A DNA stretch of 64,000 bases from a virus, in the IMG/VR virus record IMGVR_UViG_3300028883_000036, positions 32,001-96,000 of that record; one strand, 5' to 3'. The notes under the pieces were generated by a model. The model worked only from the letters and a program-made list of their open reading frames with translations. It was not told the DNA's origin and ran no database searches. Within the stretch, counting starts at the first letter, position 1. Each line of letters begins with the position of its first letter. The position numbers were made by a program, and so were the translations under genes. Below are positions 23,297-62,608 of this stretch, piece after piece.

Positions 23297-23572
23297 TTAT
23301 TCTCCTTTATCTTCTTCCATATAATCATATATGGGAATATATTCAACACTTCCATAAGATTTACTAATTATCTCATAGTAAGTTATTGGTTGTCCTATTT
23401 CTTTATTTTGCTTCTGACCAATTAGATTTTTTCCATAAAGAAAATAATCACCTATTTCTAAATTATTCATATCAATTTCTTTATCAATTTCTTTTAATCT
23501 AATAAATATTGTTTTTCTCATATCAAACTCCTGTGCTACCAAATCCACATTCAGATCTATTTGTATTTTCAT
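23297..23572 (-). CDS. Hypothetical protein
   Basis: ORF in operon; true start may be downstream of 23572. Confidence 0.5.
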   Translation of the reverse strand: MKIQIDLNVDLVAQEFDMRKTIFIRLKEIDKEIDMNNLEIGDYFLYGKNLIGQKQNKEIGQPITYYEIISKSYGSVEYIPIYDYMEEDKGE

Positions 23573-29400: not shown

Positions 29401-29634
29401 GTGAAGATTTTTTGCATGTTGCAGAATTTTTGCAATTCTATGTGCAGTATGTTGTGTTTTTGTATTAAGACTTTTTCTATTATTAAAAAAATCCCCTAAA
29501 TGAATAAGTTGTGTAATATTGTTTTTAATACAATATTTTACAATATGTTTATAAAAATTAAGGACTATATTCAACCAAGCATCTGCATCAGAATATAATC
29601 CTAAATGAGTATCGCTTACAATTAATCTTTTCAC
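26449..29634 (-). CDS. Fused gp47-gp46 (Mre11-Rad50 / SbcD-SbcC) recombination nuclease
   Basis: SDTHLG, LGDFF, GNHD and SGHFH phosphoesterase motifs, then FQNFLSFG, NGAGKSS, CPTC hook, LSGGE, LILDE and IISH in the same frame; GTG start. Confidence 0.9.
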   Translation of the reverse strand: MKRLIVSDTHLGLYSDADAWLNIVLNFYKHIVKYCIKNNITQLIHLGDFFNNRKSLNTKTQHTAHRIAKILQHAKNLHSYIIVGNHDCYYKNQIQPNTLELFKEYNNISIIDEITKLDDILLVPWGEIPSSTQNSKYCFGHFAINGFHMNDSYKCKDGLDKVTFKDFDKVLSGHFHTPSSKYNITYLGAPYGQTFHDAGGVRGYHIFEDGKLTFIEYKDAPKFVKIYTNSEPLNENEIKDNIVKIIFTKDFGTNANQEIVDNILKCKPFLYSVNFTNLKSEEEVTEDECVEMDSKEKIVDQYIETQTFSTNTDIKLLKNIFKKLMKEAGDSKSNIKIAEGTKIECIDIGFQNFLSFGSKWQEIPLHNGVNFVTGIDKDKGKSNGAGKSSFLETIPFALFGKTARDIKQNQIVNWKNKKNCQVVFRFKINDDIYEINRKLKPNSLEIYKNGDLLDQDAHKTDYQSMFENIFGMDVKMFMSLIHSNVNSSANIMNMKKPEKRAFLERMFGLIIYSDMNKLCNEKLREIENKKYKIDTDINSGNDNIESSKVLKNKFHTEIKSKKESIEGVDEIQEKIDKLKEDNPDLDIKIVNTNNEIRQREKDFSIVQIKHEKYLASEDTRCKQIEKEIKAIDDLEEQRKINKKIQKSIDNIIEKTGDIDNIINDIDIAGKKLESYKKSLNDVNLSKLKLYKELANLKADLKKNEEGLALLAEGKCPTCGQDVKDPIKHHKKDITSIKKRIIVVQKEYDDYDKNSTKYQKETETYENKIKVLHKTKDTLNDLRSKIKDVDSEKNKDELIESKSLIAQNRMDAVEIFKKNQIEHNNKIKALDNRLTDLNREHSIIKAKEKELDIKKSQVEEVKRHVKSLKEMIKEQNEKIFKIKENVKELKDNKIKLNNIVDYLNSIKYILKDENIKQFTIKQIMPFLNKQTNYYLSEVNYGFYVNIDKWLDVEIKGPGIRNATYDSLSGGERRGIDIALQLSLLDIAQVQSGLFPDILILDELLDSSIDGIGMDQIMKIIKTKQNESNKKVFIISHRQEIDAELIDNQYKVIKEDGYSRVII

Positions 29635-36497: not shown

Positions 36498-37376
36498 TTA
36501 AGTAGTACTTGAACTTGAACTTGAAGTTGAACTACTAGAACTTGAACTACCTTGAACATTTACATTAACATTTACTTCATAATCCATAAATATTCTTGTT
36601 GCTGTAGAATTTAAATGTCTTATTCTTTTTGGTACTATTTCTTTTTTATCATTTATTTTTGCAAGTCTAACTATTGTAGTTTTACCAATAATATTAGAAT
36701 GAGATACATCTTTATAAAATATATCACCTGAAGGAGTCCATGTTGTTACTTCTTCTTGATGCTCATTAACCCCACCATATTCTAAAGATTCAGATCCTTC
36801 AGCAGTACACCATGTAATAATATCATAAAGCATTTTATTACTTACAACTTTATTATATTTATTATCATCACATCCACTACTATAATCTACTGGATAAATA
36901 TCATGTGGACTTGCTGATGGAACTACTGCATTAACATGTGACCACCATTTATTTCCATAAAAATCAGATATGAATTTATTTTTATCAGATACATCTGCAC
37001 CTATATTTGTATTTTCCCATGAAAAAGCATTAGGCCAAGGATTTATATTTTGAATAACTCCTGGTGCTATACCTGCTTTATACCATTCTAATCTAAATTC
37101 TTGAGTATATGGATACCCACCATCTTCCCATTCATTAGCTAACCAAAATTCGAAAAACCCATTACTATCTGTTTGAATTTCAGCTACACTACTTGTAGTA
37201 TATGAAGAACCAGTTTCAGTTAAATATATCCTTGCTTCTGTAGTAGGATCATCATTTAAATATAAATTAATATAAACATCAGAAATTGGAACTCCTTCTT
37301 CATTTAAAACATAATGCCAAAAATGAATTCTAGATAAACTAAAATACGATGATGAAGAAGAACTTGAACTTGCCAT
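36498..37376 (-). CDS. Putative virion protein with poly-Ser at both termini (paralog family)
   Basis: MASSSSSSSS start, HFWHYVLNEEG, TDSNGFFEFW, VVPSASPHD and a C-terminal poly-Ser. Confidence 0.65.
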   Translation of the reverse strand: MASSSSSSSSYFSLSRIHFWHYVLNEEGVPISDVYINLYLNDDPTTEARIYLTETGSSYTTSSVAEIQTDSNGFFEFWLANEWEDGGYPYTQEFRLEWYKAGIAPGVIQNINPWPNAFSWENTNIGADVSDKNKFISDFYGNKWWSHVNAVVPSASPHDIYPVDYSSGCDDNKYNKVVSNKMLYDIITWCTAEGSESLEYGGVNEHQEEVTTWTPSGDIFYKDVSHSNIIGKTTIVRLAKINDKKEIVPKRIRHLNSTATRIFMDYEVNVNVNVQGSSSSSSSTSSSSSSTT

Positions 37377-38626: not shown

Positions 38627-39268
38627 TTAATTCCAAAATGTTTTATACCATAACTTTGCCCTATCTAATATTTTCTGTTTATTTTGATCATAATTTCCAA
38701 GATGAAAAATTAAATTATATTCTGTTTCAACAGAAAATGGTTCTATATATTTCAAACTATATTTAGCTAAATTTCTACTCATTATATACTCATCTACAAT
38801 TTTTCTTTCTTGTTTTATTTTACAAAGAATATCTTCCATAGATAATTCTATTGGAAATTTCCATAGATCATGAGTATATTTTGTAGTAAATACAGCACAT
38901 CCAGAAATACCAACATTTCTACCATCTCTTTTGAAATATATGTCATTTACATCTAATTGATTGCTTGCATAATAATTATCTTTAAAAGAACAATAAGTTT
39001 CTGGTATATTTTTAAGAAATGGATTATAACAATCAGGATGTATCAATACATCTAAATCTAATAACATATTAAAATCATAATTTTTTCCATCTTCATATAC
39101 CTGAAGCTTTTCTGTTAACAAAGGCCATTCATTAAACTTTCTTTCTTTTATAATATTTAAATCTGATCCAATCTTCTTACAATATCTTTCTATTGTAGGT
39201 AATGTTAAACTTTTTAATTCAGGAAAATAATTTCCTATATCTATAACATGCACACATATTGATTTCAT
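38627..39268 (-). CDS. Putative GT-A glycosyltransferase
   Basis: YCKKIG, EKLQ, LLDLDVLI (DxD) and SG motifs. Confidence 0.65.
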   Translation of the reverse strand: MKSICVHVIDIGNYFPELKSLTLPTIERYCKKIGSDLNIIKERKFNEWPLLTEKLQVYEDGKNYDFNMLLDLDVLIHPDCYNPFLKNIPETYCSFKDNYYASNQLDVNDIYFKRDGRNVGISGCAVFTTKYTHDLWKFPIELSMEDILCKIKQERKIVDEYIMSRNLAKYSLKYIEPFSVETEYNLIFHLGNYDQNKQKILDRAKLWYKTFWN

Positions 39269-39285
39269 ATTTTACCTTTTATTTT

Positions 39286-42200
39286 CTATATTCTAATTCC
39301 AGCACAACCAACACCTGCTTGATTTTGGTCTGTAGACCCTATTTTTAACCAATCTGTTTCCGAACCAACTTGTTCTGGAAGGGAATGTGAAATTATAGTA
39401 CCATCAGCTAATTGACCATAAGAATTATTGCCCCATGACCATAAAGTTCCATCAGTTTTAATAGCAAAAGTACTATTGATACCACTATAAACAGAAGACC
39501 ATGTATCAGTACCAACTTGAGTAGGAGAATTTACAGCACCCCCTGTAAGACCAAGCTGTAAATCAGTATTATTACCCCATGACCATAAAGTTCCATCGGT
39601 TTTAACAGCATGAGATGTTAACTCACTACCAGCTATTTCATCAGACCAATCTGTTAATGCCCCTATTTGAACAGGAGATGATTTAGATACTATAGTACCA
39701 TCACCTAATTGACCTTCTAAATTTCTACCCCATGACCATAAAGTTCCATCGGTTTTAACAGCAATAGTATGATATGTTCCATCTTTAACATTACTCCAAT
39801 TCGTATCACTACCAACTTGAGTAGGAGAACTTCTATGTGTAGTTGCTCCCTGATCACCTAGTCCTAATTGACCATATAAATTACTACCCCATGACCATAA
39901 AGTTCCATCAGTTTTAATAGCATGACATGTGTATTGACATTGTGATATAACTGCCCAATCTGTTAATGCCCCTATTTGAATAGGAGATGATTTAGATACT
40001 ATAGTACCATCACCTAATTGACCATTATTATTATATCCCCATGACCATAAAGTTCCATCGGTTTTAATAGCTAAACATGAACTAATACCATCTGTAGAAC
40101 AATATTCCCAATCTGTTAATGCCCCTACTTGTGTTAATACTGATTTTGATGAAGTTGAACCATTACCAAGACCACCATTAGAACCATACCCACAAGTCCA
40201 AAGTGTTCCATCAAGTTTTATAACAATATTAAGAGCACCCATATCAACTTCTTTCCATGTAGTATCTGAACCAACTTGAGTAGGAGATGATCTTCTATCT
40301 GTATCATTTAAACCAAGTTGACCAAAAGGATTAAATCCCCATGCAAATAATTCACCAACAATAGCTGTACTTGAACTACTTGAACTTGATGTTGATTCAC
40401 TTGAGCTTGAACTTGATATGCTTGAACTTGATACTGAACTACTACTTGATGAACTTGTAGAACTTGAAGATGAAGAATTAAGTGCTTCTATTCTATAATG
40501 AAAAAAACATTGAACCCCTTCAGGTTTATGTAATGTACTACATCTTGAATACATTATTAAATCATCAAGATAATTAAAAAGACCAACTTCAGTTATATCA
40601 ACATCTGAATAATCTTTAGGAACAATAAAATCAACTAAAACTTGTTGACTTCCATATTGCTCTATTGCTTCATATGCTCCACTCGTTACAGGAGATTCTA
40701 AATCATTTTCAACAAATGGATTCCATAATGTACTTGTTCCTGTTCCTACTTTCCAATATCCCAAAACATCAGGACATATTCCTATTCCAAGTATATCACA
40801 ATTATATGGAGAATAAACAACTCTATCTCTTAATACTTGAATTATATGAGCATATCCTCTTTTATTTTCAGCCCAATAAATTTCTAAATTATCTTGATCA
40901 ATAATAACTATTCTATCAGGAGATATTGTTTCATATGTAGTAATGTCATAACATTGAACGATAACCCATGAATTTAACTTATGTTCTATAGACCATTTAG
41001 TAGATGGATCATATTGATTATGAATATAATCAGATCTTCTTACCAATGATCCACCTGAAACAGCAGTATTCCAAGTTGTTTGTATAATATCTTGAGTAGG
41101 AATATCATTTATATAAGGAATAACTCTATAACCATTTGTATCCCAATGCATAGCTATTGGTCCTGGTGCCGCTGATGTACCAATATAACCTGATGGAGTA
41201 TTAGTAGATAAATTATGAGTTATATTCCATATATCTGCTCCTGCACTTACATAATTTTCATTATAAAAACTAATTCCATTAGCCGCTGATCCTGCAATAG
41301 CAGCAACCCCTCTTACTGACTCATTAAAAGTTAATTCTACTGCATTATCACTAAGCATATGTACTGTATCAGGTTGTACTAATTTTGCTCCTACACTTGT
41401 TGGTCCTACAAAAACCCAAGGCTGAACCAAAATATATTTACTGTTTAAATTATGTGTAATTGTCCATTTTTTAGATGCAAATTGTTGAAAATGTGAATCA
41501 GTATTAAAACCACCACTACTTCTTCCCCCCGCTGATATAAATCGTGACCCTGTAAAAAAAGTATTCATAAATCCATTTGAATTTTTCGGATATAATGCTA
41601 CTGAATCACCAATTCTATCAACTTTTGCCAATGGAGCAATTAATTCTTCATAATGAGCATATTTATTAACTGGTTTGACATAATCAAAATTAGTTATTAA
41701 TTCATCTATAATATCTTCACTAATAATTGTATCATTATCAAATATATCACCTAATGGTTCAGTAGATAAATCTACTTGAACCTTATAATGTGGTGTAATA
41801 ACAGGATACCCTGAGTTAGTAATTGTTTGAGTATATGTATTATTAAGAGAAAGACCATATATAGTTCCAGACCATTTTTGATGCCCTGTAATTCTTTTAC
41901 CATTCAAAACAGTTAAAATTGAATATGAATTAACTGAACTTAAAGAAAGAGAAAATGTTTCAAGTAAATCCCCAACTAATCTATTTTCTGTACTATAAAC
42001 TCTTACTCTTAATACTGCATCTGTTCTATCTATAGTAAGATAATATGGAGTATTATATGTATAAACATATGTAGATTTAGTACTATTTTCAATTCCACTT
42101 TTAGATTCACCTAACCTAAAGAAAATATTACTACCTGATGCTTCAAAACTACAATAAATATAATCACCTACATGATCTGATATTTGAGCTACTTCATTAC

Positions 42201-43437
42201 TTAAAGACCAAAAAACCAAATTAGAAGGTTGATTTAAATAAACATTTTCATCCATTTTAATACCAATTGAATGAATAAAATTACCGCTATATATAGGAGT
42301 AGCTGCACTTAAATATATTGTTTGAGTAGTTAATCTTGTAGGATCATATTCAGTAATAGAAATTTGATTTTCTTTAATATCACCAACTGAGCAATTTAAA
42401 TCATCATAATTAAATAGTATATAATTTTCTTCTGTTCCTGTATCCCAAGCAAAAGTTAAACAATTTCCTGATGGTGCTACTCTTGTATGAACAGGATAAT
42501 TATCAGGATTATATCTTGAATAATAATAATCACCAGCACCACCACTAGGTTGAATACCATAAAATTCTAAAAAATGATAATCTTCAAACTCATCAGTTAA
42601 TTTTCCAAATGTATCATCTATATTCTGAACACACCATTCCCCCCATCTTTCATATATATTTAAATGATTACTAGTATTTTTCGAAAATAACTTCCATACT
42701 ATATAAAGAGCATTATATGTTCCTATTCTTTTTAAAAAATATGGTAAATTTTCTACCCATTCTCTCAATGAAAGTTCATCAAGAACTTCTTCTGATATTT
42801 CCACTCCATATGTACTTGCAATATAAGCTAACCATCTTATATCAATTTCTTTTGCATCAAACATAGACCAAAATGTTTTTGTCATATTATACATCTCATG
42901 ATGTACTTGATCCCAATAAACCTTTAACCATTCTTCCATATTAACAGTTTGATTATGTTGTGGAATTCCCTTTAAAGTAAAATCTTTAAGTCCTTCAAAT
43001 TCAATTGAATATGTATTTATTTCATTACTTACAGGCCAAATTTTACCAAAGAATAAAAATGTTTTTTCTTGATTACAATAATTATGATATAAATCATCTT
43101 GTTCTGGTCTTGCTAACCAATAATGAAAAAAAGAATCTTTTCTAAAATACATTTCATTACCGATATCAAAAGCACTAGAAGCAACAGAAAAAGTAGATTC
43201 AAGACCTTCATATGTCATTTTAAATCTATTACCAACTATTTCTTTAATCTTAAATCTATGCCCAACATACCCTCTATCAGAATTATCTTCATAAAGAATA
43301 GTATATACCCCACCTTGACTTACTACAGTACGATTAGGACCAATCAATACACTTTTTTGAGTACCTACTCTTTCTGCAACTAAAATATCAAAATATGACT
43401 TCAATAATTTATAATTAGGATCTGAAAATTTCCCCAT
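39286..43437 (-). CDS. Large baseplate/tail protein with poly-Ser linker and C-terminal RCC1 beta-propeller
   Basis: Wedge-like segment (LAYIA ... LKRIGT), WxIxHNL repeats, DITEVGLF, a poly-Ser linker, then about seven KTDGTLWSWG.N..GQLG repeats; adjacent to gp6. Confidence 0.75.
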   Translation of the reverse strand: MGKFSDPNYKLLKSYFDILVAERVGTQKSVLIGPNRTVVSQGGVYTILYEDNSDRGYVGHRFKIKEIVGNRFKMTYEGLESTFSVASSAFDIGNEMYFRKDSFFHYWLARPEQDDLYHNYCNQEKTFLFFGKIWPVSNEINTYSIEFEGLKDFTLKGIPQHNQTVNMEEWLKVYWDQVHHEMYNMTKTFWSMFDAKEIDIRWLAYIASTYGVEISEEVLDELSLREWVENLPYFLKRIGTYNALYIVWKLFSKNTSNHLNIYERWGEWCVQNIDDTFGKLTDEFEDYHFLEFYGIQPSGGAGDYYYSRYNPDNYPVHTRVAPSGNCLTFAWDTGTEENYILFNYDDLNCSVGDIKENQISITEYDPTRLTTQTIYLSAATPIYSGNFIHSIGIKMDENVYLNQPSNLVFWSLSNEVAQISDHVGDYIYCSFEASGSNIFFRLGESKSGIENSTKSTYVYTYNTPYYLTIDRTDAVLRVRVYSTENRLVGDLLETFSLSLSSVNSYSILTVLNGKRITGHQKWSGTIYGLSLNNTYTQTITNSGYPVITPHYKVQVDLSTEPLGDIFDNDTIISEDIIDELITNFDYVKPVNKYAHYEELIAPLAKVDRIGDSVALYPKNSNGFMNTFFTGSRFISAGGRSSGGFNTDSHFQQFASKKWTITHNLNSKYILVQPWVFVGPTSVGAKLVQPDTVHMLSDNAVELTFNESVRGVAAIAGSAANGISFYNENYVSAGADIWNITHNLSTNTPSGYIGTSAAPGPIAMHWDTNGYRVIPYINDIPTQDIIQTTWNTAVSGGSLVRRSDYIHNQYDPSTKWSIEHKLNSWVIVQCYDITTYETISPDRIVIIDQDNLEIYWAENKRGYAHIIQVLRDRVVYSPYNCDILGIGICPDVLGYWKVGTGTSTLWNPFVENDLESPVTSGAYEAIEQYGSQQVLVDFIVPKDYSDVDITEVGLFNYLDDLIMYSRCSTLHKPEGVQCFFHYRIEALNSSSSSSTSSSSSSSVSSSSISSSSSSESTSSSSSSSTAIVGELFAWGFNPFGQLGLNDTDRRSSPTQVGSDTTWKEVDMGALNIVIKLDGTLWTCGYGSNGGLGNGSTSSKSVLTQVGALTDWEYCSTDGISSCLAIKTDGTLWSWGYNNNGQLGDGTIVSKSSPIQIGALTDWAVISQCQYTCHAIKTDGTLWSWGSNLYGQLGLGDQGATTHRSSPTQVGSDTNWSNVKDGTYHTIAVKTDGTLWSWGRNLEGQLGDGTIVSKSSPVQIGALTDWSDEIAGSELTSHAVKTDGTLWSWGNNTDLQLGLTGGAVNSPTQVGTDTWSSVYSGINSTFAIKTDGTLWSWGNNSYGQLADGTIISHSLPEQVGSETDWLKIGSTDQNQAGVGCAGIRI

Positions 43438-43851
43438 TTAGCTTACCTTTATTTTTTTAATAGCATCATCAAGTTTTTTCTTAATATCATTTCTTCTTTC
43501 TAATAAATCTTTATAATCTTGTTGTAATATAACGTCTTCAGGATATCTTCTCATTTGTCTTTTTAATTCAAATAAATCATTAGTTAATTTATCATACATA
43601 AATTGAAAATATCTAACATCAGATTTATATTGTTGATTTTCTAAAGCACCAGCAACTTTAATTTCCAAATTTTGTACTTCTTTTTCGGCATATACTTCAA
43701 CTTTATCAACTCTTGTATTAGTAGCATAATGAACTTCAAATCCCCATATACCACCAACAATTGCAAATACTGTTGCAACAGCAGATAAAACAACAATTAC
43801 TTTTTTAGTGAAATAACTTGTCCATGTTTTTTTATCTATTTCATCTACCAT
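43438..43851 (-). CDS. Single-TM coiled-coil membrane protein
   Basis: Hydrophobic VIVVLSAVATVFAIVGGIWGF followed by a helical region. Confidence 0.6.
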   Translation of the reverse strand: MVDEIDKKTWTSYFTKKVIVVLSAVATVFAIVGGIWGFEVHYATNTRVDKVEVYAEKEVQNLEIKVAGALENQQYKSDVRYFQFMYDKLTNDLFELKRQMRRYPEDVILQQDYKDLLERRNDIKKKLDDAIKKIKVS

Positions 43852-43863
43852 TATTATCTCCCA

Positions 43864-45576
43864 TTATGTTTCTTCAAATATTTTTACTGTGTTACTTGAT
43901 AAATAAGGAAACTGATTCAATCCTAATTGAATAGGTCTTAACATATTATCTCTATTTGTCCAAGGAGCATTAGACCATTTTGGAAATAATGTTGGATCAT
44001 CAGAATTAACATTATATTCATATATAGTTTTATTAATGTTAATATCTCTTATATTTAAATTTCTTATTCCTTTGATATATTCAAAATTATCATCAGGAGA
44101 TACATTACTTGTATCTATTAAATATTCTGTTATATCATTAAAATCTATTTCACTATTAAACAATTGATTTTCAGCCCTAAAATAATAAATAAGTTTATTC
44201 AAAACATCTGTTTGAATATCAGCAAAATCATATATTCTTTTCTTTCTTACACCAATTTCAAAACTAAAATATATTAAATCAGGAATTTCCATTATTTCAT
44301 ATGCTGATATCATTTTTCTTGGTCTTAAATAAAGAAGTAATTCATTTTCCCATGCAGAAGAATATCCTATTGGAATTAATATAGATTCTGTTTCATTCCA
44401 ATCCGTAGTAATAGTACCCGCTGAAGTTTGAATTGTACTATTATTAAAATCTTCAGGAATAACACTAATATGAACTAAATTATATTCTTGTGGATCTCCT
44501 GAACCAGAAGGAACTAAATCTTGTTCACCATAAGCATTAGCTTTAATAACATCTGATCTTGCTGATAAAAATGAATTATATGCTGTAGCATTTACATCTC
44601 TAAATTGTGATCTCAAAGCTGATTGAGAATTAAATCTAATTTCATCAATAGTTTCAGGAGCAGAAGCACCTATACTTGCTGCACTTAATGACATAGTAAT
44701 TACATTATTATTAACATAAGAAGTAGTTATCCCTCTAGTAAGTTCTATAAATTCATCTGAATTAATTACCCATGTTTCATCTGCATCTTCACCAATACTT
44801 CCATCTGTTCCTAAACTATCTAATGCTATTATAGATATATCATCATCTATTGTGGGAACATTTCTTGATGAATTAAATACTATTTTATTTCTTCTATATC
44901 TATCATATATTGACATATATACATTATCTGAAGATTCAATAACATCTAAATAAAAATCTGAAACTCTTGTCCATTCTGTATCATTTACTGTAACTCTAAT
45001 ACTTGGTAATTCATCTGTTAAATCATCATCATATCCATATTCAGAAGGAAGAATTAACTCATTATCAATTAAATCATCACCTGTATATCCAGTTAAATTA
45101 ACTAATTCTCCTTGTCTTACTGGAACATTTATAACGGTATCTGTACTTGAAGCTGTAACTTGTACTGAAGCTGTAGTAGCAAATAAAATTTGATTTCCAT
45201 CAGTATCTTGTCTTCCTGAATCTAATTGTTTCCAAGGCAACACCCTAAGAACATCTCCTACTTGTGTTCCTGATACAGCTACTTGTAAAGTACATCTAGC
45301 AGATCTTGTTCCTTTTGGTTCATATCCTATTTGTCTTGCCAATCTATTTGCTGCTTCATAAACATCAGCAGTTTCAAGAAAATTATTTTTTGCTATTTTA
45401 TTTATAAAAAATGTATTTAATTCACTTACATAAGCATTTAACTCCATTAAAATAGAAATATTAGATCCTTCAAAATCATAATCTTTAAATACTTCACTAT
45501 TTTGAAGTTCTGTTTTGAATTTTTCTATTAGAGTTAAAAAATCTGTAGAAAGATATTCAGGGGTAAATTCAGCCAT
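43864..45576 (-). CDS. gp6: Baseplate wedge protein gp6-like
   Basis: FKDYDFEGSNISILME, FLETA, ARQIGY and ETIDEIR ... QFR motifs. Confidence 0.88.
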   Translation of the reverse strand: MAEFTPEYLSTDFLTLIEKFKTELQNSEVFKDYDFEGSNISILMELNAYVSELNTFFINKIAKNNFLETADVYEAANRLARQIGYEPKGTRSARCTLQVAVSGTQVGDVLRVLPWKQLDSGRQDTDGNQILFATTASVQVTASSTDTVINVPVRQGELVNLTGYTGDDLIDNELILPSEYGYDDDLTDELPSIRVTVNDTEWTRVSDFYLDVIESSDNVYMSIYDRYRRNKIVFNSSRNVPTIDDDISIIALDSLGTDGSIGEDADETWVINSDEFIELTRGITTSYVNNNVITMSLSAASIGASAPETIDEIRFNSQSALRSQFRDVNATAYNSFLSARSDVIKANAYGEQDLVPSGSGDPQEYNLVHISVIPEDFNNSTIQTSAGTITTDWNETESILIPIGYSSAWENELLLYLRPRKMISAYEIMEIPDLIYFSFEIGVRKKRIYDFADIQTDVLNKLIYYFRAENQLFNSEIDFNDITEYLIDTSNVSPDDNFEYIKGIRNLNIRDININKTIYEYNVNSDDPTLFPKWSNAPWTNRDNMLRPIQLGLNQFPYLSSNTVKIFEET

Positions 45577-45589
45577 TATTCAATTCTCC

Positions 45590-45967
45590 TTATCGTGTTA
45601 ATATAAAACTCACAGTTTCAACTTCATCACTACCTATTATTGTAAAGTTGAGTCTACATCTGTATGCATTTTGATCATACAATGGTTCAATATCAAATCT
45701 TGTAATATCAATTCTATTTTCCCAAATTTTAATAGCATCAATTAAATTTTCCGCTATTTGTCTTGCAGAAATTTCATCAATAGGTTCAAACAAAAGATGT
45801 TTTACATTAGAAGCAAAAGTAGGTAGCATTCTTCTTTCCCCTTGAACAGTCAAAATAATATTAGTTATACTATTAAATATTGCATCCACATCAGTATCTT
45901 TTTCAACATCTCCATCAGACTGTTTTGTAAAACTTCCATCATAATCACTATAAAATACTGTTGCCAT
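45590..45967 (-). CDS. gp25: Baseplate wedge / sheath initiator gp25-like
   Basis: YSD, AIFNSITNIILT..GER.M.PTF, LLFEP and WENRI motifs. Confidence 0.9.
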   Translation of the reverse strand: MATVFYSDYDGSFTKQSDGDVEKDTDVDAIFNSITNIILTVQGERRMLPTFASNVKHLLFEPIDEISARQIAENLIDAIKIWENRIDITRFDIEPLYDQNAYRCRLNFTIIGSDEVETVSFILTR

Positions 45968-46346
45968 TTTTTATCCTCTTTGGGTTTATTTTAATAGAAT
46001 CTATCTTTCTATCTTTATTTATCTTTAATTGTTTGCATTTTTTAGAATTTTCAGTAATTAATATGCATTCTGTTTCTTCTTTTGCTTTTTTATTATATAA
46101 AATGATATGTTTTTTCTTTTTATAATATTCTTTATTATATTTCTTTATTGCATTTTTATTATTCTTCTTCCATTTTTCATTACATTTCTGTTGTATTAAT
46201 TTTCCTTTTTGAGAAGATTTATATTTTTTGGTAATTTTTCTCATACAATCCCTACAATATATATTTTTACCATCAGGATTAGATGTTTTTTTACCAAACT
46301 TCCCAATTTTTCTATTTCTACCACAACATTTACATATCTTCTTCAT
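45948..46346 (-). CDS. Basic Zn-finger protein resembling the N-terminus of HNH-type homing endonucleases
   Basis: CKCC ... F ... DG ... CRDC; no nuclease domain follows. Confidence 0.5.
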   Translation of the reverse strand: MKKICKCCGRNRKIGKFGKKTSNPDGKNIYCRDCMRKITKKYKSSQKGKLIQQKCNEKWKKNNKNAIKKYNKEYYKKKKHIILYNKKAKEETECILITENSKKCKQLKINKDRKIDSIKINPKRIKNGNSIL

Positions 46347-46497
46347 TTTTTTTATGTTTCTTTTTTCTACTATATTTTGATTTATCTTTAAAAAATTGAC
46401 TACCTTTAGCAGTAGGAATTCTTAATGCTTTCTTTTGATCTAAAGTATCTCTTTTTTTCTTTTTAGCTTCAGGTAAATATTTATCTATCAAATTCAT
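46330..46497 (-). CDS. Small basic protein with capsid-targeting-like leader (55 aa, not in the ORF track)
   Basis: Manual translation MNLIDKYLPEAKKKKRDTLDQKKALRIPTAKGSQFFKDKSKYSRKKKHKKNEEDM*; AGGAG upstream; starts 1 nt after the cca stop. Confidence 0.7.
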   Translation of the reverse strand: MNLIDKYLPEAKKKKRDTLDQKKALRIPTAKGSQFFKDKSKYSRKKKHKKNEEDM

Positions 46498-46498
46498 T

Positions 46499-47929
46499 CT
46501 AAACTCCTGTTATCTTTTTGATATATTTTTCAATTTCTTCTTTGTCTTCTATATCATGGTCCATTATCCATTCTGTAGTTTGAGTTATTATCTTTCCAAT
46601 TTTAGGTCCAGGTTTTAATCCTGTCCATTTTATTACATCTTTACCATCCACCAATTTAATCTGTTTATTGAGTTGTTTAGCACCAAACTTTTCTTTAACC
46701 TTAACGGCTTTATCAACAATTTTTTCAAATTCTCCTGCATGACTAAACATATGTCCTCTTGCATATTCATCAGCTTTTCCAACACTAACCAATACATCCC
46801 AATTATTATCAGAAACAAGTTTAGCTATTTTAGAAGGTTTCATATCAAGAATCTTATGAAACTTCATATGATTTCCAACTGCAAATATAAGAGCATCTTT
46901 TTCTTTATTACTCATTCTTAATCTATCAGCTATAGCATTCACTAAATCAATTGATTTCCTAGCATGACCAAGATATTTGGGTAATCCTTTATCATGAGAC
47001 AAAGTTATACCTTTACCTACATCGTGTAAAAGTATAGCCAAATTTTTAATCGGATCAGCAGAATCACTCTTTTTAAGTGCTGCCATGACATGACTATATA
47101 CTGTACCACCTTGCCCCCTTGTTTCTGGATGATGTTGTAAATTTTCTCTATACCATTTCAAATTAACTATTTCAGGTAATATATGTTTAAGAAGTTTTAA
47201 CTTATCCAACATATCAATATATTTTGCAAATTTATCTCCACTCTGAGAAGCAGATTTCATCAATTCATCTTTAATTCTTTCAGGTGCAAGTCCTGTTATA
47301 TTATGAGCTAATTTTTGTGCTGCTTTACTTGTATTTTTATCAACCTCAAAATCAAGTTTAGCTGCAAATCTTGCAAGTCTCATCATCCTCAAATAATCCT
47401 CACCAAACCGCTTGTAAGGATCACCAACAGTTTTTAAAACTTTATCTTTGATATCCCTCTTACCATCAAAATAATCTACAATTTCACCCTTAGAATTGAT
47501 TCCCATTGCATTTATAGTAAAATCTCTCCTTTCAACATCCTCTTTAAACTTTCCTGTTATTGTAACCGATTCTGGTCTTCTACCATCAAAATAAGTTCCA
47601 TCATTTCTAAACTGAGCTATTTCAAAATCATATCCACCTTGTTTCACAACTACAATTCCAAAACTTTTTGATTTACCTATATCATATGTTTTAAACATAG
47701 TAGATAATTCATCCATAGGCATATTAGTTGCTATATCAACATCATGAGGTTTTAAATTACCTAATACAATATCTCTTACACTTCCACCTACTATATAAGC
47801 CTTATATTTCTTCTTATTTATCTTATTTAGTATATCAACAGCTACTTTTAATTCTTTATTTCTTCTTATATAAGATTGCCAATCTTGTAATTTTTCTTTT
47901 GCTTCATTCAAATATCTTGTTAGTCTCAT
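46499..47929 (-). CDS. cca: Class II tRNA nucleotidyltransferase (CCA-adding enzyme) with HD domain
   Basis: VGGSVRD, DVDIAT, EDVERRDFTINAM, RFGEDYLRMMR and ERI..EL; HD domain HHPE ... H ... LLHDVGK. Confidence 0.88.
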   Translation of the reverse strand: MRLTRYLNEAKEKLQDWQSYIRRNKELKVAVDILNKINKKKYKAYIVGGSVRDIVLGNLKPHDVDIATNMPMDELSTMFKTYDIGKSKSFGIVVVKQGGYDFEIAQFRNDGTYFDGRRPESVTITGKFKEDVERRDFTINAMGINSKGEIVDYFDGKRDIKDKVLKTVGDPYKRFGEDYLRMMRLARFAAKLDFEVDKNTSKAAQKLAHNITGLAPERIKDELMKSASQSGDKFAKYIDMLDKLKLLKHILPEIVNLKWYRENLQHHPETRGQGGTVYSHVMAALKKSDSADPIKNLAILLHDVGKGITLSHDKGLPKYLGHARKSIDLVNAIADRLRMSNKEKDALIFAVGNHMKFHKILDMKPSKIAKLVSDNNWDVLVSVGKADEYARGHMFSHAGEFEKIVDKAVKVKEKFGAKQLNKQIKLVDGKDVIKWTGLKPGPKIGKIITQTTEWIMDHDIEDKEEIEKYIKKITGV

Positions 47930-48348
47930 TATATATACCCATATTTTTTTGCATTTTTTATTGATTTATTAGACATAGCAACAGGAATTTTTTTCATACC
48001 TAAATCTCTTAATACAGCATATCTATGTCTTCCATTTCCAAAAGATATTCTACCAATATCATCAATATCAACAGAAGAAACTATAATATTTCCTTCAGGA
48101 GATTCACCTAACCATCTTTTTCTTTCATCTTCTGGTTTTTCTATAATTTCTTTAAACATTTTATATCTACCACCAATAGCATTCCCACTTCCACCTTTAC
48201 CAATATAAAAATTTTTATCCCTTGACCATTCTTTATCAAATTTATTAACAATTACTTTTACAATTTTTCTATCAGTTTCAAATTTAGCCTTTTCAAATTT
48301 TAAAGACTTCAAATCAATTCCTTCATTCAAATATCTTTTAAATTTCAT
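47929..48348 (-). CDS. Stand-alone ParB/Srx-like domain protein
   Basis: NGRHRYAVLRDLGMKKIPV motif; N-terminal MKFKRYLNEG leader. Confidence 0.6.
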   Translation of the reverse strand: MKFKRYLNEGIDLKSLKFEKAKFETDRKIVKVIVNKFDKEWSRDKNFYIGKGGSGNAIGGRYKMFKEIIEKPEDERKRWLGESPEGNIIVSSVDIDDIGRISFGNGRHRYAVLRDLGMKKIPVAMSNKSIKNAKKYGYI

Positions 48349-49061
48349 TAAAAATACCTCTTTGGATTTTTAGTAGAACTACCTGTAGCAGCATTAATAG
48401 TTTCATTTATTTCTTTCTGAACTATTTCTGATTTAGCTTTAAAAGATTTTATATTATCTTTTAATGCAGTATCAAATCCTGTCATTAATATATCTTCATC
48501 AAAACTTCCATCTTCCGCAAGATATAAATCATCTGTAACTGTAGTAACTCTATCTTGTAATAATTGTATTTGATCTGCATATTCTGATGCCTGTTGTGAT
48601 AAAGAAACACATTGTAATTTTTTATTTATTGCAGCAATTAAATCACTAATTTCACTAGTAAGCCCCCAAATTTTTTGTAAAGCTTTCATCAAATCACTTT
48701 CAGGTAATGCCAATATTTCACTAATAGCATCTAATCCATCTTCAATATTATTCAATACATTATTCGCATATTTTTTTATATTAGCCAAAGCAATACTTAA
48801 ACAATCTCCTACAAGATCATTTATAGGTTCAATATCTGATACTGATGCACATAAAACTTCAGAAGTCAAAGCATTTAAAGCAGTATTAATAGTACTAGAT
48901 GGAGATATGCTATTAGGATCAAAACCTGTTCCTTGAGATCTAAAATCATCTACATATGGAGTTATCCCTCTTGCTTGTGCTTCAAGTGTATCTATCTCCC
49001 CTGTACTTGTATCTATAATATTTTGTAAAGGATCTATACTATTATTTTGATTACAAGTCAT
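48348..49061 (-). CDS. Hypothetical helical protein (baseplate-gene neighbour)
   Basis: 237 aa with GGAG RBS, directly downstream of gp5. Confidence 0.6.
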   Translation of the reverse strand: MTCNQNNSIDPLQNIIDTSTGEIDTLEAQARGITPYVDDFRSQGTGFDPNSISPSSTINTALNALTSEVLCASVSDIEPINDLVGDCLSIALANIKKYANNVLNNIEDGLDAISEILALPESDLMKALQKIWGLTSEISDLIAAINKKLQCVSLSQQASEYADQIQLLQDRVTTVTDDLYLAEDGSFDEDILMTGFDTALKDNIKSFKAKSEIVQKEINETINAATGSSTKNPKRYF

Positions 49062-49069
49062 ATCTTCTC

Positions 49070-50338
49070 CTAGCTTGCTTGAGTATTTGTTGTTAATTCA
49101 CTAGAACTCATTTGTTGATTAGGTGGATCAGTAGTTCCCCCACCATCACCATTTTCTTTATGAGTATGAGAATTATACACTGAAGCAGCAGTAGCATTCA
49201 TTATTTTCTTTAATGATCCTTGATTAGCAAGATTTACTGTTCCTGTTAAATTTATTGTAGGAGCAGTAACAGTAGTAGTACCATCTGATGTAATATTAGC
49301 TGCTCCTGTTACAGTAATATTTAATGCACCACCAATATCTTCTGTTTTATTACCACCAATATCTTCTGTTTTATTACCATCAATATCTTCTGTTTTATTA
49401 CCATCAATATCTTCTGTTTTATTACCACCAATATCTTCTGTTTTATTACCACCAATAGTTTGACTCATGTTATTTGTAATTTGTTCTTCTTTGCTACCAT
49501 TTATTTCTATAGTTTCATCTTCAGCTATTCTCTTTTTTGATCCTGCATCTATAGTAAGATTTCTTTGTTGTTTAATATGAATGTTTTTACCTTCAGCAAT
49601 TATTTCATATTTTTCTCCATCATTTTTAACAACCATATTTCCATTATTATCAATTTCAATAAAACTATTAGATGGATGATAAAGATGTAATCTAGTAGAA
49701 CCAGGAGTTGAATCTAATTCAATTGTTATTCCACCATGAGTAGCAATAACATGATTATGAGGATATTGTGAATTATAAGGTGAAATGGGTTCCGACCAAC
49801 TACCACCCAAAGCTGTTGGAACACCTAAATCTCTTTCATTATTTTTTGTTGTTACTAAAGTTTCTTTTGATATTCCTCTTGATAATCTATGAAAATCAGG
49901 TTCACCTAATCTACCATTAACAGGATATTGCCCATCAGGATCTTTAAAGCCATCACTTTTATTTGTTTCTCTATTATTATTTGAATATTGTTCCTTTGAT
50001 TCAGGTATTCCTGGCAAAGAAGCAAAATATCTTGGTTCAGAAGGATTAGAATTTTCAAAAAATACCATTACTTGTGACCCTTGTAATGGAACAGCCCATG
50101 AACCAAATCCACTTATAGATCCTTCATGAATAGGCATACAAGGTTCAGCCCAAGGTAATTCATCTGTTGGTATACCTTCTATATCATTCTTTGTAATCTT
50201 TGGTGTATGTAATCCATGTATTCTTATTCTAACTCTACCTGCTTTTAATGGATCTTTATTATCTTCAACAACACCACGATAAAAACCAGTTAAATTTTCA
50301 ATATTAATTCTTAAATCTTTTGGTGGATTTTTAAGCAT
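49070..50338 (-). CDS. gp5: Baseplate central spike gp5-like (no lysozyme domain)
   Basis: GVVEDNKDPLKAGRVRIRIHGLH, LPWA, YPHNHV, 8-aa beta-helix repeats and an HTH apex motif (YNSHTH). Confidence 0.88.
   Translation of the reverse strand: MLKNPPKDLRINIENLTGFYRGVVEDNKDPLKAGRVRIRIHGLHTPKITKNDIEGIPTDELPWAEPCMPIHEGSISGFGSWAVPLQGSQVMVFFENSNPSEPRYFASLPGIPESKEQYSNNNRETNKSDGFKDPDGQYPVNGRLGEPDFHRLSRGISKETLVTTKNNERDLGVPTALGGSWSEPISPYNSQYPHNHVIATHGGITIELDSTPGSTRLHLYHPSNSFIEIDNNGNMVVKNDGEKYEIIAEGKNIHIKQQRNLTIDAGSKKRIAEDETIEINGSKEEQITNNMSQTIGGNKTEDIGGNKTEDIDGNKTEDIDGNKTEDIGGNKTEDIGGALNITVTGAANITSDGTTTVTAPTINLTGTVNLANQGSLKKIMNATAASVYNSHTHKENGDGGGTTDPPNQQMSSSELTTNTQAS
49330..49456. repeat. 24-bp tandem repeat encoding (G/D)GNKTEDI beta-helix
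   Basis: Five copies of CAATATCTTCTGTTTTATTACCA(C/T). Confidence 0.9.
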
Positions 50339-50346
50339 TATTACTC

Positions 50347-51666
50347 CTATTTACTTAATATTCTTATTTGTTGAATATCTCCTTCTTGACGTATATTTGT
50401 TATTTTTGATTTATATAAAATTTTACTATCAATATTTGTATATGCATTTTTAATTAAAACTAATCTTTGCCTATATGGATATGTACTACCTGGATCAAAT
50501 GAATGAGTGACACTTTTTATTAAATATTTACCTTCAAGCAAATCGTTATAAGCTACATAATCTCCTTTATTTCTAAATGCACTAGGCCAAGCTATCTGTA
50601 TTTGCTGTCCTGCAAATCTTTTTTCATGTCCTTCAACAATTAAATTTACAATAAATTGCATATTATATCTTTTTGACCAATCATTATAAGCTATATTATC
50701 AAGAAGAAAATCATCATTCCCACCAACAATAACATTTGATGATAAAACATCATCCATTTGATTATATAAAGTTTTACTGCCTAGCATAACAGTATTATCA
50801 GCCCCATCTGAATATACATATTCATGATTTAATAATTTCTTTGTATTAAAATCATATCCTTTCCATACTCCACCTCTTAAAACTGAATTTGAATTTCTAT
50901 CAAGCCCACTCATCCACCATTCAAGGATCTTATTTTCAGCAGATACTTCTGCTTTATCAAATGAATATTTTATAGGATCATATGTTTTTCCTAAATCATA
51001 TAACAAGTAATTCATTGTAACAAGATTATGACTAATTCCTTTATCTGTATTATTAAAACATAAATACCCACTTGTTCCTGAATCTTTCCCCTTTGCCCTT
51101 CTCATTAACCATCTCATAGCTGTTTGAGGATTCCAATAGGGAATAATAAAATCTGTTTTATTACTACTTTCTTCTACATTAAAAACTCTACCAGCTTGTT
51201 TAAAAAATACCATATTATTCAATATATCTTTCATTATATCAGAATAATATTTATCACTCCAACTTCTACTATATTTTCTTAAAGAAAAACCAGTATAAAA
51301 TGGATCAACAAAATTCATAGTAATAAGATTATCACTTTCTTCTCTCATACCTGAACCTGTTTGTTGAATCTTACCAACTTTCCATATGTCAAAAATTAAT
51401 TCTCTATTCTTTTGTTTTCCATCTTTCCCAACAGAATATATAATAGCTAACTTTTCATTTCCTGTAAATGGGCCATATTGCATTATATTATATCTATCAT
51501 TTATAGTAATAGTTCCAGTAAGACAGAACTTAAATATATCTTCTATAAAATATAATTTATTAATATCTGCATTGTTTAAAACAATAGGTTGTTTTTCTGT
51601 AATTAACAATACACTAAAAATATTTTTTTTAAGTTCTACCTTTCCTTTATCATAATCTGTTTGCAT
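50347..51666 (-). CDS. Baseplate hub (gp27-like) protein
   Basis: IEDIF ... GTITIND, FIIPYWNP and GKYLIKSVTH; located between gp53 and gp5. Confidence 0.7.
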   Translation of the reverse strand: MQTDYDKGKVELKKNIFSVLLITEKQPIVLNNADINKLYFIEDIFKFCLTGTITINDRYNIMQYGPFTGNEKLAIIYSVGKDGKQKNRELIFDIWKVGKIQQTGSGMREESDNLITMNFVDPFYTGFSLRKYSRSWSDKYYSDIMKDILNNMVFFKQAGRVFNVEESSNKTDFIIPYWNPQTAMRWLMRRAKGKDSGTSGYLCFNNTDKGISHNLVTMNYLLYDLGKTYDPIKYSFDKAEVSAENKILEWWMSGLDRNSNSVLRGGVWKGYDFNTKKLLNHEYVYSDGADNTVMLGSKTLYNQMDDVLSSNVIVGGNDDFLLDNIAYNDWSKRYNMQFIVNLIVEGHEKRFAGQQIQIAWPSAFRNKGDYVAYNDLLEGKYLIKSVTHSFDPGSTYPYRQRLVLIKNAYTNIDSKILYKSKITNIRQEGDIQQIRILSK

Positions 51667-52430: not shown

Positions 52431-52438
52431 TATTTATA
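52431..52438 (-). promoter_or_regulatory. T4-type late promoter TATAAATA
   Basis: Intergenic consensus upstream of the baseplate operon; gp55 is present in the window. Confidence 0.7.
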
Positions 52439-52459: not shown

Positions 52460-52510
52460 GAAAAAGAAAAAGAAAAAGAAAAAAGGGGAGATGCTTGGCA
52501 TCCCCCCCTT
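52460..52510 (-). terminator. Rho-independent terminator
   Basis: Minus strand GGGGGGATGC-CAA-GCATCTCCCC followed by a long T-rich run. Confidence 0.85.
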
Positions 52511-55440: not shown

Positions 55441-55710
55441 TTATTTCATCCAATCTATTATTTGATTAACTGTACCTTGCCCACCAATTATATACTTTCC
55501 ATATGTATTAATTAATTTTTTAACTTTCTTTTTATCACCTTTTTTCATTGCCCATGAAACATTAGCAGTTATTTCCCCTTCTTTACCTTTCATTACTTTA
55601 GCAATTTGTTCTAATGCATCAGCAAGACTACTTTTATCATATTTAGAAGAATCAAATTTCATATTAGGAATATATTTGGCTTCACCTATATATTTTTCTA
55701 TTAAATCCAT
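55441..55710 (-). CDS. Putative head internal protein
   Basis: MDLIEKYIGEA leader. Confidence 0.55.
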   Translation of the reverse strand: MDLIEKYIGEAKYIPNMKFDSSKYDKSSLADALEQIAKVMKGKEGEITANVSWAMKKGDKKKVKKLINTYGKYIIGGQGTVNQIIDWMK

Positions 55711-56620: not shown

Positions 56621-57049
56621 TTATTTATTTAGCCATTCTTTATGATTATCAGGATCAATATAACCTTTAATTTTCATTACGACTGATGTTAAATAATCCC
56701 ATTTATCCATTTCTGTATTAAAATTAAATTTTCCCCATCCTGCTATACTAATTTTATCTTTTGTTAAATTAATAATATGTTTATCAGAAAATATATTAGG
56801 TATTCTCTTATTCAATTCTTTTTTTATATCTTTTCTATATTCACTCCATCCTTTATCAGTACTCAAATTATATTTACTTAATTTTATACTCTTTAAAGCA
56901 TCACTAACTTTTTTATAATAATCAGTTTCAGATTTTACAGTTTCTTTATATTCTTTCTTTTTATTTCCTTCTAATTTATCATAAATTTGTTTTCTTTTTC
57001 TATTTCTACCAAATATATCTTCACATAAATATTTATCTATTAAATTCAT
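56621..57049 (-). CDS. Putative head internal protein
   Basis: MNLIDKYLCED leader. Confidence 0.55.
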   Translation of the reverse strand: MNLIDKYLCEDIFGRNRKRKQIYDKLEGNKKKEYKETVKSETDYYKKVSDALKSIKLSKYNLSTDKGWSEYRKDIKKELNKRIPNIFSDKHIINLTKDKISIAGWGKFNFNTEMDKWDYLTSVVMKIKGYIDPDNHKEWLNK

Positions 57050-61654: not shown

Positions 61655-62026
61655 ATGAATTTAATAGATAAATACTTAGGAGAAGGATATTCACAAAATA
61701 CACCATCAGAAATAATAACAGCTATACAAAGAAAAGGGAAAAAAATAGCAAATGATCCCTTTGATATTAATAAAGCATATTTTAATTTAGATGGAACTGT
61801 ATATAAAGCAGGAGTTGGTAAAGGTGTTGTCAATATGGGAGACATAAAAAGTTTTATTAAAAAGGTAAAAACTGGAAAATTAAAAGCTAAATTAGTTGAA
61901 GGTAAAACATCATCAACACAAATGCAATGCATGGAATGTGGTCATAAATTCAAAAAGAAATTAGGAAGAAATACATTTGAAGTGAAATGTCCGAAGTGTA
62001 AAGGATATGATACTGAACCAGTATAA
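61655..62026 (+). CDS. Putative internal protein with C-terminal zinc ribbon
   Basis: MNLIDKYLGEG leader; CMECGHKF ... KCPKC. Confidence 0.6.
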   Translation: MNLIDKYLGEGYSQNTPSEIITAIQRKGKKIANDPFDINKAYFNLDGTVYKAGVGKGVVNMGDIKSFIKKVKTGKLKAKLVEGKTSSTQMQCMECGHKFKKKLGRNTFEVKCPKCKGYDTEPV

Positions 62027-62242: not shown

Positions 62243-62608
62243 ATGAGATATTTCAGATATTTAACAGAAGAAAATGTTATATCAAAAGCATTAAATCTTC
62301 CAGAACCTAAAGTTGGTGGTGATTATCCCCCTGAAAAGGTTAAAAGATATATAAAAATAATTGAAGATGCTTTAGCAGCAATGGCAAATAAAGAAGAAAG
62401 TGAATCTAATGATGCTATTGTATCTGATTTAAGAGATAAAAAAAGTAAATGGAAAAATGTAAATAAAGAAACAAAACCAACTAAAACTAAATTGGAAGTT
62501 CCCCCTGATCAAGAAGAAGAACCACCACCTGAACAGGAAGAACCACCACAAAAAAAAGAAGAACCAAAAGAAAGTAAAATTGAGAAAATGTTTAGAAAAA
62601 TGCTCTAA
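62243..62608 (+). CDS. Putative head internal protein
   Basis: AGGAG RBS; MRYFRYLTEE leader; Pro/Glu-rich tail. Confidence 0.55.
   Translation: MRYFRYLTEENVISKALNLPEPKVGGDYPPEKVKRYIKIIEDALAAMANKEESESNDAIVSDLRDKKSKWKNVNKETKPTKTKLEVPPDQEEEPPPEQEEPPQKKEEPKESKIEKMFRKML

Follow-up and report, generated by a model that had tools for sequence, protein, structure and literature searches.

A 64,000-nucleotide stretch of an uncultured virus genome (positions 32,001 to 96,000 of IMG/VR record IMGVR_UViG_3300028883_000036, hereafter the window) contains a gene for a CCA-adding/HD enzyme whose first nine residues, M-R-L-T-R-Y-L-N-E, recur in similar form at the start of many otherwise unrelated proteins of this virus and its relatives. 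As judged from sequence comparison, this leader is a tag used throughout the lineage, under selection as a peptide, and carried by unrelated accessory enzymes and small basic proteins. In its pattern it resembles the capsid-targeting sequence (CTS) of bacteriophage T4, and by that analogy the virus probably packs the enzyme into its particles and delivers it together with its DNA; what is new here would be a variant of the T4-type capsid-targeting system applied to a CCA/HD enzyme. Packaging and injection of this enzyme had been suggested in an earlier reading of the window, made without database searches (the original prediction), and our analysis supports that reading in part.

The virus is represented by a 107.7-kb contig with a G+C content of 27% and an estimated completeness of 51%. 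The baseplate proteins encoded on it have only about 25% identity with their counterparts in cyanophages and other T4-like phages, and a megablast comparison of the region with cultured phages gave no match.

The CCA/HD enzyme and its N-terminal extension

The enzyme gene (P0001) occupies 46499..47929 on the minus strand, has an ATG start, and encodes a 54-kDa protein of 476 amino acids; the assignment is based on open reading frame (ORF) calling together with Pfam and PHROG matches. The ORF noted in the original prediction at this position is real, but its strand is corrected to minus, the plus strand over the same interval being crowded with stops and having no open frame. Its description as a class II nucleotidyltransferase with an EDxxRRD motif is borne out. 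The Pol-beta-type nucleotidyltransferase head domain (residues 44–165; 47435..47800), which includes GGxVRD/DxD and EDxxRRD, matches PF01743 (PolyA_pol) with an E-value of 5e-32 and a score of 111 bits against a cut-off of 23, and the protein matches PHROG 2244 (tRNA nucleotidyltransferase) with an E-value of 4e-74. The motifs GGSVRD...DVD, EDVERRD, and HHPE...H...LLHDVGKG can be read in the sequence; EDVERRD, at residues 130–136, is the EDxxRRD form of motif D, and D131, R134, R135, and D136 are invariant in an alignment of 21 homologues with 68–85% identity.

Following the head domain are a neck or RNA-binding region (residues 193–254; 47168..47353) that matches PF12627 (PolyA_pol_RNAbd; E-value 7.5e-12), an HD-type phosphohydrolase region (residues about 266–388; 46766..47134) with the pattern HHPE...H...LLHDVGK...H...D, and a tRNA_NucTran2_2-like C-terminal tail (residues 418–465; 46535..46678) that matches PF13735 with an E-value of 3e-4, which is under the cut-off; all are on the minus strand. 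The HD domain of the original prediction is present as a pattern, and H267, H280, H302, D303, H322, H354, and D387 are invariant among the 21 homologues, but PF01966 (HD) scores only 18.2 bits on the window protein, under its cut-off of 22. The same model reaches 29.5 bits on the homologous C-terminal half encoded at a related locus (L020), several close homologues have a precomputed PF01966 match, and the model for the multifunctional Cca protein of E. coli (NF008137) covers residues 43–374 (E-value 3e-49) and runs through the HD region. By these matches and the modelled fold, the protein is shown to be of the class II CCA-adding type of tRNA nucleotidyltransferase, apparently fused to an E. 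coli Cca-like HD phosphohydrolase region. Homologues are present in 486 phage records.

Solved CCA enzymes begin aligning only at residue 26–29 of this protein, and other phage homologues begin matching at residue 47. Because canonical enzymes align only from residue 26 onwards, the 24-residue N-terminal extension, leader included, is real; the original prediction had noted an extension, MRLTRYLNEA, from the sequence. Residues 1–9 (47903..47929, minus strand) constitute the leader, a predicted targeting and cleavage propeptide with a predicted cut after Glu9. Residues 10–24 (A-K-E-K-L-Q-D-W...N; 47858..47902, minus strand) are a conserved extension that is specific to this CCA clade and not present in canonical enzymes; among the 21 homologues W17 is invariant, and E12, Y20, and N24 are nearly so. 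This segment is predicted to be helical with low to moderate confidence. An AlphaFold model of the enzyme (predicted local distance difference test score, 69.8) has an N-terminal helix of low confidence only, and is uninformative as to the role of the leader.

The window enzyme shares with E. coli Cca (NF008137) and the Bacillus-type enzymes (1miv and 6ibp) the class II head and neck, EDxxRRD, and the HD-region pattern HPE...H...HD..GK. It differs from them in being phage-encoded and located inside a baseplate operon, in scoring under the equivalog cut-offs, in having an extra tRNA_NucTran2_2-like tail, and in the leader-containing extension of 24 residues. The CCA enzymes of jumbo and other phages belong to the same family and have the same proposed function, restoration of tRNA 3′ ends, and are read in the literature as an RNA-repair counter-defence (Iyer et al. 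2021, PMC7824862); unlike the window enzyme, they have a canonical N-terminus (including gp18 of phage Atu_ph07) and are not proposed as virion cargo.

Thirteen tRNA genes are present on the contig, all outside the window, and all 13 encode their own 3′ CCA. The enzyme would thus repair or maintain tRNA ends and not be needed for maturing the phage tRNAs, which argues against a late maturase, an option that the original prediction had considered. Its role, by analogy, would be tRNA 3′-end repair or turnover as in E. coli, where likewise all tRNA genes encode CCA. One of the 13 is a CTA-anticodon tRNA of the amber-suppressor type (genome G000 23421–23496, plus strand), about 8.5 kb before the window; the window ORFs read through normally with translation table 11.

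Distribution and cargo of the leader

The leader has the consensus M-[KR]-[LF]-x-x-Y-[LI]-x-E, and there is a 10-residue variant, M-N-L-I-D-K-Y-L-x-E. When every ORF start in the genome was scored position by position, three ORFs reached 7/7, with the next best at 5; these are the CCA enzyme, the adjacent 139-residue ORF, and a 121-residue ORF that begins M-R-Y-F-R-Y-L-T-E (62243..62608, plus strand). A looser scan added the 10-residue variant on orf55, which neighbours the CCA gene, and on others, and the leader genes it identifies encode proteins of 89 residues (M-D-L-I-E-K-Y-I-G-E; 55441..55710, minus strand), 142 residues (M-N-L-I-D-K-Y-L-C-E; 56621..57049, minus strand), and 123 residues (M-N-L-I-D-K-Y-L-G-E; 61655..62026, plus strand).

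Using internal methionines as controls to provide the expected counts, N-termini fitting the loose motif are substantially over-represented, with 9 in this genome versus 0.86 expected (P = 3e-7) and 30 in the relative G006 versus 2.3 expected (P = 2e-23). Five genomes were tested; P ranges from 3e-7 to 2e-23 in four and is 0.005 in G001, and the three related genomes other than G001 give values from 7e-8 to 2e-23. The leader is not due to chance. It is present on up to about 12% of genes (30 of 274 in G006 by the loose motif, or 32 in a still looser scan).

Whether other phage CCA homologues carry the leader was a question raised with the original prediction. Nearly all of the 120 homologues listed (67–87% identity) do so; among the 21 aligned homologues M1 and E9 never vary and Y6 hardly does, and the leader persists to about 53% CCA identity but is gone in the more distant homologues of T4-like phages. 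Across the loci and genomes compared, it heads 191 distinct ORFs, which sort into 73 cargo families once the leader is removed. In an alignment of 70 leader-bearing representatives M1 and E9 are the only common residues, and positions 4, 5, and 8 vary freely. The codons used for Tyr6, Leu7, and Glu9 match the background synonymous mix, with all six Leu codons represented, and selection therefore acts on the peptide.

The Pfam matches among the 70 representatives include RNA_ligase, cREC_REC (a cyclic-phosphate-processing receiver domain), polynucleotide kinase (PNK)-like kinases of the AAA_33/KTI12/Zeta type, NUDIX, ART-PolyVal, GNAT, amidoligase, a C39-like peptidase, a DnaJ domain, GP88, RimK fused to a Zn protease, and a weak match to Tpt1/KptA; PHROGs adds RNA ligase and 5′-3′ deoxyribonucleotidase. 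No replication or structural core proteins were seen among the cargo of these representatives. From these matches the cargo looks like a collection of effectors or accessory enzymes in which RNA repair is a recurring theme, which fits the published RNA-repair view of phage CCA enzymes (PMC7824862). The commonest tagged family, which has an [FW][YW]RG motif, was considered as an Alt-like ADP-ribosyltransferase and rejected, since hhalign comparison with T4 Alt gave a probability of 0.1 and a PDB profile search was empty. For the second commonest family (L059; 509 residues), neither cultured phages nor PHROGs yielded a match.

The type of leader can differ on the same cargo: basic peptides of the orf55 family have the 10-residue leader in some genomes but the nine-residue type in L002 and L007. 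At L020 the CCA gene is split by a GIY-YIG homing-endonuclease gene, and the downstream HD half has a perfect leader of its own. More distant phages have proteins of 666 residues (L080 5392–7389), 1018 residues (L090 4429–7482), and 2212 residues (L097 778–7413) in which the CCA module forms the C-terminal portion. The modules in L080 and L090 are preceded by I-L-N-E and L-L-E, respectively, at the same distance from a conserved D-W as in the window protein. Because this hydrophobic-L-x-E junction is kept deep within long ORFs it is not a translation-start feature; it fits a protease site.

Split CCA genes are present at L020 (8001–10265) and also at L081, L022, and L092, and at L077–L079, L091, L094, L095, and L103. 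There are two split points (at about residues 116 and 263), and the C-terminal fragments from both have the same 22-residue start, K-L-G-x-x-E-P-Y-D-x-N-N-P-x-H...K-Y; a docking peptide and a splicing remnant are two possibilities for this add-on.

Comparison with T4 capsid targeting and Atu_ph07 virions

The internal proteins of T4 have been described as a diverse set of defence proteins with the CTS alone in common (PMC3012670), and it is this sequence that takes them into the scaffolding core (PMC3012670; PMC5694885). The T4 prohead protease gp21 always cleaves after Glu within short motifs, and Alt is cut at ITE-6 and LTE-619 (PMC5694885). In the T4 record, IPII and IPIII both start M-K-T-Y-Q-E-F-I-A-E, gp24 starts M-A-K-I-N-E-L-L-R-E, and gp23 has F-L-T-E-A in the known maturation region. 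The exact cut positions in gp23 (F-L-T-E/A) and gp24 are established.

The leader is likewise a sequence of about 10 residues on unrelated proteins, as are the CTS of IPI, IPII, and IPIII and the leader of gp21-cut Alt, and it too ends in [LI]-x-E (Y-L-N-E at residues 6–9 of the CCA enzyme, with E9 invariant). The spacing of M-K-T-Y-Q-E-F-I-A-E is the same as that of the 10-residue variant, the cargo is similarly variable and clustered in plastic regions, and the lineage has homologues of gp21 and gp23. The two systems differ in consensus (Y-L-x-E after M-[KR]-[LF] in the window lineage), in the number of cargo families, which is much greater here (73 in the sample; up to about 12% of genes), and in the nature of the cargo, which here is mostly enzymes, including the 54-kDa CCA/HD enzyme and RNA-repair enzymes. 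The capsid-targeting-like leader of the original prediction can thus be retained, as a predicted form of the T4 CTS/gp21 signal that is lineage-wide, selected, and accompanied in the lineage by a gp21-type protease.

Searches for the gp21, gp23, portal, and sheath families found nothing useful in the window's own genome, which is a 51%-complete fragment, or in G001–G005, which are also fragments. Peptidase_S77 (gp21) and the Gp23 capsid protein are, in contrast, encoded in all five of the larger relatives (G006–G010), whose CCA enzymes are 44–70% identical to the window enzyme. In the two closest of these, which were used for comparing capsid proteins, the residues that align with the T4 gp23 site are N-W-L-Q-E/A (G006) and N-Y-L-M-E/Q (G008), such that the predicted capsid maturation site in the closest relatives is the aromatic-Leu-x-Glu motif of the leader. 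G006 has a leader-bearing ORF of 83 residues inserted between its gp21 protease gene and its scaffold gene, an arrangement not shared by G008. The G006 gp21 homologue itself (L116 1345–1968, minus strand) starts M-K-L-I-T-E and ends ...W-L-Q-L-T-E-K-N, and these leader-like [LI]-x-E motifs at its two ends may be autoprocessing sites. A predicted complex of this protease with residues 1–45 of the CCA enzyme from G006 scored 0.02, without controls, and carries no weight for or against.

A connection to known virion proteins is provided by the cultured T4-core jumbo phage Atu_ph07, which also has gp21 and gp23 homologues. A tblastn search identified homologues of the commonest leader family in this phage (30% identity; E-value 9e-10), encoded in a tandem array, gp53–gp65 (L147; Atu_ph07 39250–51654), and their N-termini are of the form M-[RK]-W-x-Q-L-[TN]-E, an eight-residue leader without Tyr. 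All 13 of these proteins were detected in purified Atu_ph07 virions by tandem mass spectrometry, with 3–31 unique peptides each (Attai et al. 2018, PMC6102473, Table S5), and the published masses agree with the ORF lengths. The Atu_ph07 CCA enzyme, gp18, which is untagged whereas that of the window is tagged, has a canonical, leaderless N-terminus and is not in the virion protein list (PMC6102473, Table S5). This pattern of tagged proteins inside and an untagged one outside agrees with tag-dependent packaging, although it is no proof of it. The paper does not appear to recognize the shared leader of gp53–gp65 or to report its processing (PMC6102473).

By analogy with the CTS on IPII, IPIII, and Alt, the leader would dock the enzyme into the prohead scaffolding core, a gp21-type prohead protease would cut after Glu9 in accordance with the [LI]-x-E rule, and the mature enzyme would remain in the head with the DNA and enter the cell at infection. 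There the nucleotidyltransferase would rebuild lost C-C-A on tRNA ends and the HD region would remove blocking groups of the 3′-phosphate type; delivery with the DNA would make this repair activity available before any phage protein is made. In the relatives, other leader-tagged RNA-repair enzymes (RNA ligase and PNK-like kinases) would act alongside the CCA enzyme. That the leader is a head-targeting and processing signal is the interpretation we favour, with reasonable if limited confidence; for the full chain, from capsid targeting through cleavage after Glu9 and injection to early tRNA-end repair, we see the case as evenly poised.

Several considerations weigh against this proposal. Packaging, cleavage, and injection are predictions by analogy, both for this protein and for the lineage as a whole. 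The leader residues are not similar to M-K-T-Y-Q-E-F-I-A-E of T4, the likeness being one of pattern (M, aromatic, aliphatic, x, E; length 9–10), and [LI]-x-E is a short motif. The link to the protease is through relatives whose CCA enzymes are no closer than the identities given above, the head genes being off this fragment. The Atu_ph07 proteins are about 30% identical over about 130 residues, to one cargo family only, and have the eight-residue variant of the leader. Leader genes making up as much as about 12% of a genome's genes would represent far more cargo species than T4 packages. Residues 10–24 are also conserved, and part of the N-terminal extension may therefore serve the enzyme itself. 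Finally, all scores of the enzyme are under the NCBIfam equivalog cut-offs (the best, NF009814, is 254 bits versus 290, and the other models fall further short), and for this reason the sequence matches are compatible with CCA addition, A-addition, or poly(A) synthesis.

The alternative that survives best, which we regard as unlikely, is that the enzyme is cytoplasmic only and that the leader has some other protein-level role, such as timed degradation, being recognized by a different chaperone or protease of the phage, or directing proteins to another compartment of the particle, for example the lumen of the tail or baseplate. In its favour, CCA enzymes are widespread in phages and usually have no leader, the tag is on a very large number of genes, and the CCA gene is among baseplate genes, not head genes. 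However, the end of the leader follows the gp21 rule and agrees with the capsid maturation site of the closest relatives, leader-bearing homologues are virion proteins in Atu_ph07, and a tagged ORF lies between the protease and scaffold genes of G006. Moreover, sister clades keep the leader but not the baseplate position, and no other candidate recognizing enzyme was seen to co-occur with the leader.

It is considerably less probable that the enzyme is not a tRNA CCA repairer but a poly(A)- or A-adding polymerase, or a processor of the phage's own tRNA-like RNAs. The sub-cut-off NCBIfam scores leave room for this, and the structures of E. coli poly(A) polymerase rank next after the CCA-adding enzymes in both sequence and fold. 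The nearest solved relatives by both measures are nonetheless bacterial CCA-adding enzymes (6ibp and 1miv), the top NCBIfam models are CCA tRNA nucleotidyltransferases (sub-cut-off, and thus a family-level assignment only), and the pcnB model scores 158 versus a cut-off of 306; the EDxxRRD motif, the Cca-type HD region, and the 13 tRNA genes in the genome also speak for a CCA-adding enzyme. Very improbable is a nucleotide-level explanation, in which the shared 5′ end is an initiation or regulatory element or a recombination site for cassette shuffling and the peptide is functionless: within the leader, 16 bases are identical between the CCA gene and orf139, codon choice is somewhat biased (ATA for Ile at position 7, CTA at position 3), leader genes cluster in variable islands, and the sequence encoding the T4 capsid-targeting leader may also aid recombination, but the Tyr, Glu, and Leu synonymous codons are at background frequencies with both Leu codon families in use, positions 4, 5, and 8 are free to vary while M1 and E9 are invariant, and the hydrophobic-L-x-E junction precedes CCA modules deep in long ORFs where no initiation occurs.

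Genomic context and implications of the proposed leader-directed packaging

The genes flanking the CCA gene are all transcribed from the minus strand. Upstream are a gp5-like baseplate hub/tail lysozyme gene (49070..50338; phrog_430, E-value 1e-82), orf237 (48348..49061), which most relatives retain in this position between the gp5 and CCA genes, and orf139 (47929..48348), whose product begins with the leader M-K-F-K-R-Y-L-N-E. The stop codon of orf139, which encodes 139 amino acids, overlaps the CCA start by one base (TAATG). The orf139 product contains a G-N-G-R-H-R motif and has no Pfam or PHROG match; its feature and structure neighbours in the ESM Atlas include ParB_N and ParB/Srx N-terminal-domain clusters, a lead only, and on this basis we tentatively describe it as a small ParB/Srx-like protein. 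Immediately downstream is orf55 (46330..46497), with the 10-residue leader variant M-N-L-I-D-K-Y-L-P-E followed by a very basic 45-residue peptide that has a conserved K-K-A-L-R-I-P-T motif and a weak match to DUF7230; like the T4 internal proteins, it is small and basic. Next are orf132 (45948..46346), which has a weak endonuclease VII/Lar-like match (phrog_1035, E-value 2.5e-5) and is conserved just upstream of gp25, and genes for gp25-like (45590..45967; phrog_261, E-value 1e-37) and gp6-like (43864..45576; phrog_219, E-value 1e-42) baseplate wedge subunits.

About 20 distinct loci whose CCA enzyme has an identity of 71% or more share the gene order gp27-like, gp5, orf237, CCA, variable genes, orf132, gp25, gp6. 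Sister clades have the leader-bearing CCA gene elsewhere, in other leader-gene islands, and because of this we regard the gp5–gp25 gap as a variable insertion site and not a functional requirement. The placement of the gene between gp5 and gp25 in a late operon, as described in the original prediction, is therefore confirmed with respect to a late-looking baseplate unit, but the position is not essential.

A strong terminator-like hairpin with a 13-bp stem followed by a T run (52482..52510, minus strand) is located upstream of the baseplate/CCA transcription unit, and no further minus-strand terminator was found between 52482 and 43000. For this reason, and because the CCA start overlaps the orf139 stop, the CCA gene is most likely co-transcribed with the baseplate genes, a timing that suits a packaged protein. 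Just past the terminator is TATAAATA (52431..52438, minus strand), a motif match to the T4 late-promoter core; it is weak evidence and a local hint only, as the motif is not enriched genome-wide (48 observed versus 65 expected at 27% G+C). A scan for sigma-70 promoters gave fewer sites than in shuffled sequences.

Several other features of the window were observed. Right after the baseplate genes is a gene for a 1383-residue protein (39286–43437, minus strand) with RCC1-repeat-type matches at its C-terminus, which is probably a tail fibre or receptor-binding protein. An ORF of 1061 codons (26449–29634, minus strand) has an SbcD-like nuclease match (residues 1–343) and an SbcC-like ATPase match (residues 293–1060), the equivalents of gp47 and gp46 in what is apparently one fused protein. 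A 350-codon ORF (23523–24575, minus strand) combines an endonuclease match (residues 2–191) with a dUTPase match (residues 202–350), and the product of a late-region ORF (36498–37376, minus strand) starts with Met-Ala followed by eight serines in a run.

A phage RNA-repair answer to host tRNA damage has a counterpart in T4, where PseT (polynucleotide kinase/phosphatase) and RNA ligases act against the anticodon nuclease PrrC; relatives of the window virus tag an RNA ligase and PNK-like kinases with the leader. The T4 PseT and RNA ligases are made after infection and are not known to carry a targeting leader, whereas the repair enzymes of the window lineage look as though they are directed to the virion. 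A broader reading, which we put forward tentatively and hold to be possible, if somewhat doubtful, is that a large group of uncultured T4-like phages use a tag of 9–10 residues to load an exchangeable enzyme toolkit into the capsid, and that the virion thus brings ready-made translation-repair activity, which neutralizes the tRNA-targeting defences of the host before phage gene expression. This toolkit would include a complete tRNA-repair set comprising the CCA/HD enzyme, RNA ligase, PNK-like kinase, and the cyclic-phosphate-processing domain.

The T4 CTS is the textbook system for delivering ready-made anti-defence proteins, but few proteins, all of them small, are known to use it. If the proposal is correct, environmental T4-like phages would routinely inject dozens of enzymes, RNA-repair enzymes among them, and the view of early infection and of tRNA-targeting defences, whether anticodon nucleases or toxins acting on the CCA end by blocking or trimming it, would need to be revised. 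The leader would also provide a compact natural tag for packing foreign proteins into phage heads, and a simple sequence rule by which virion cargo could be predicted in metagenomes.

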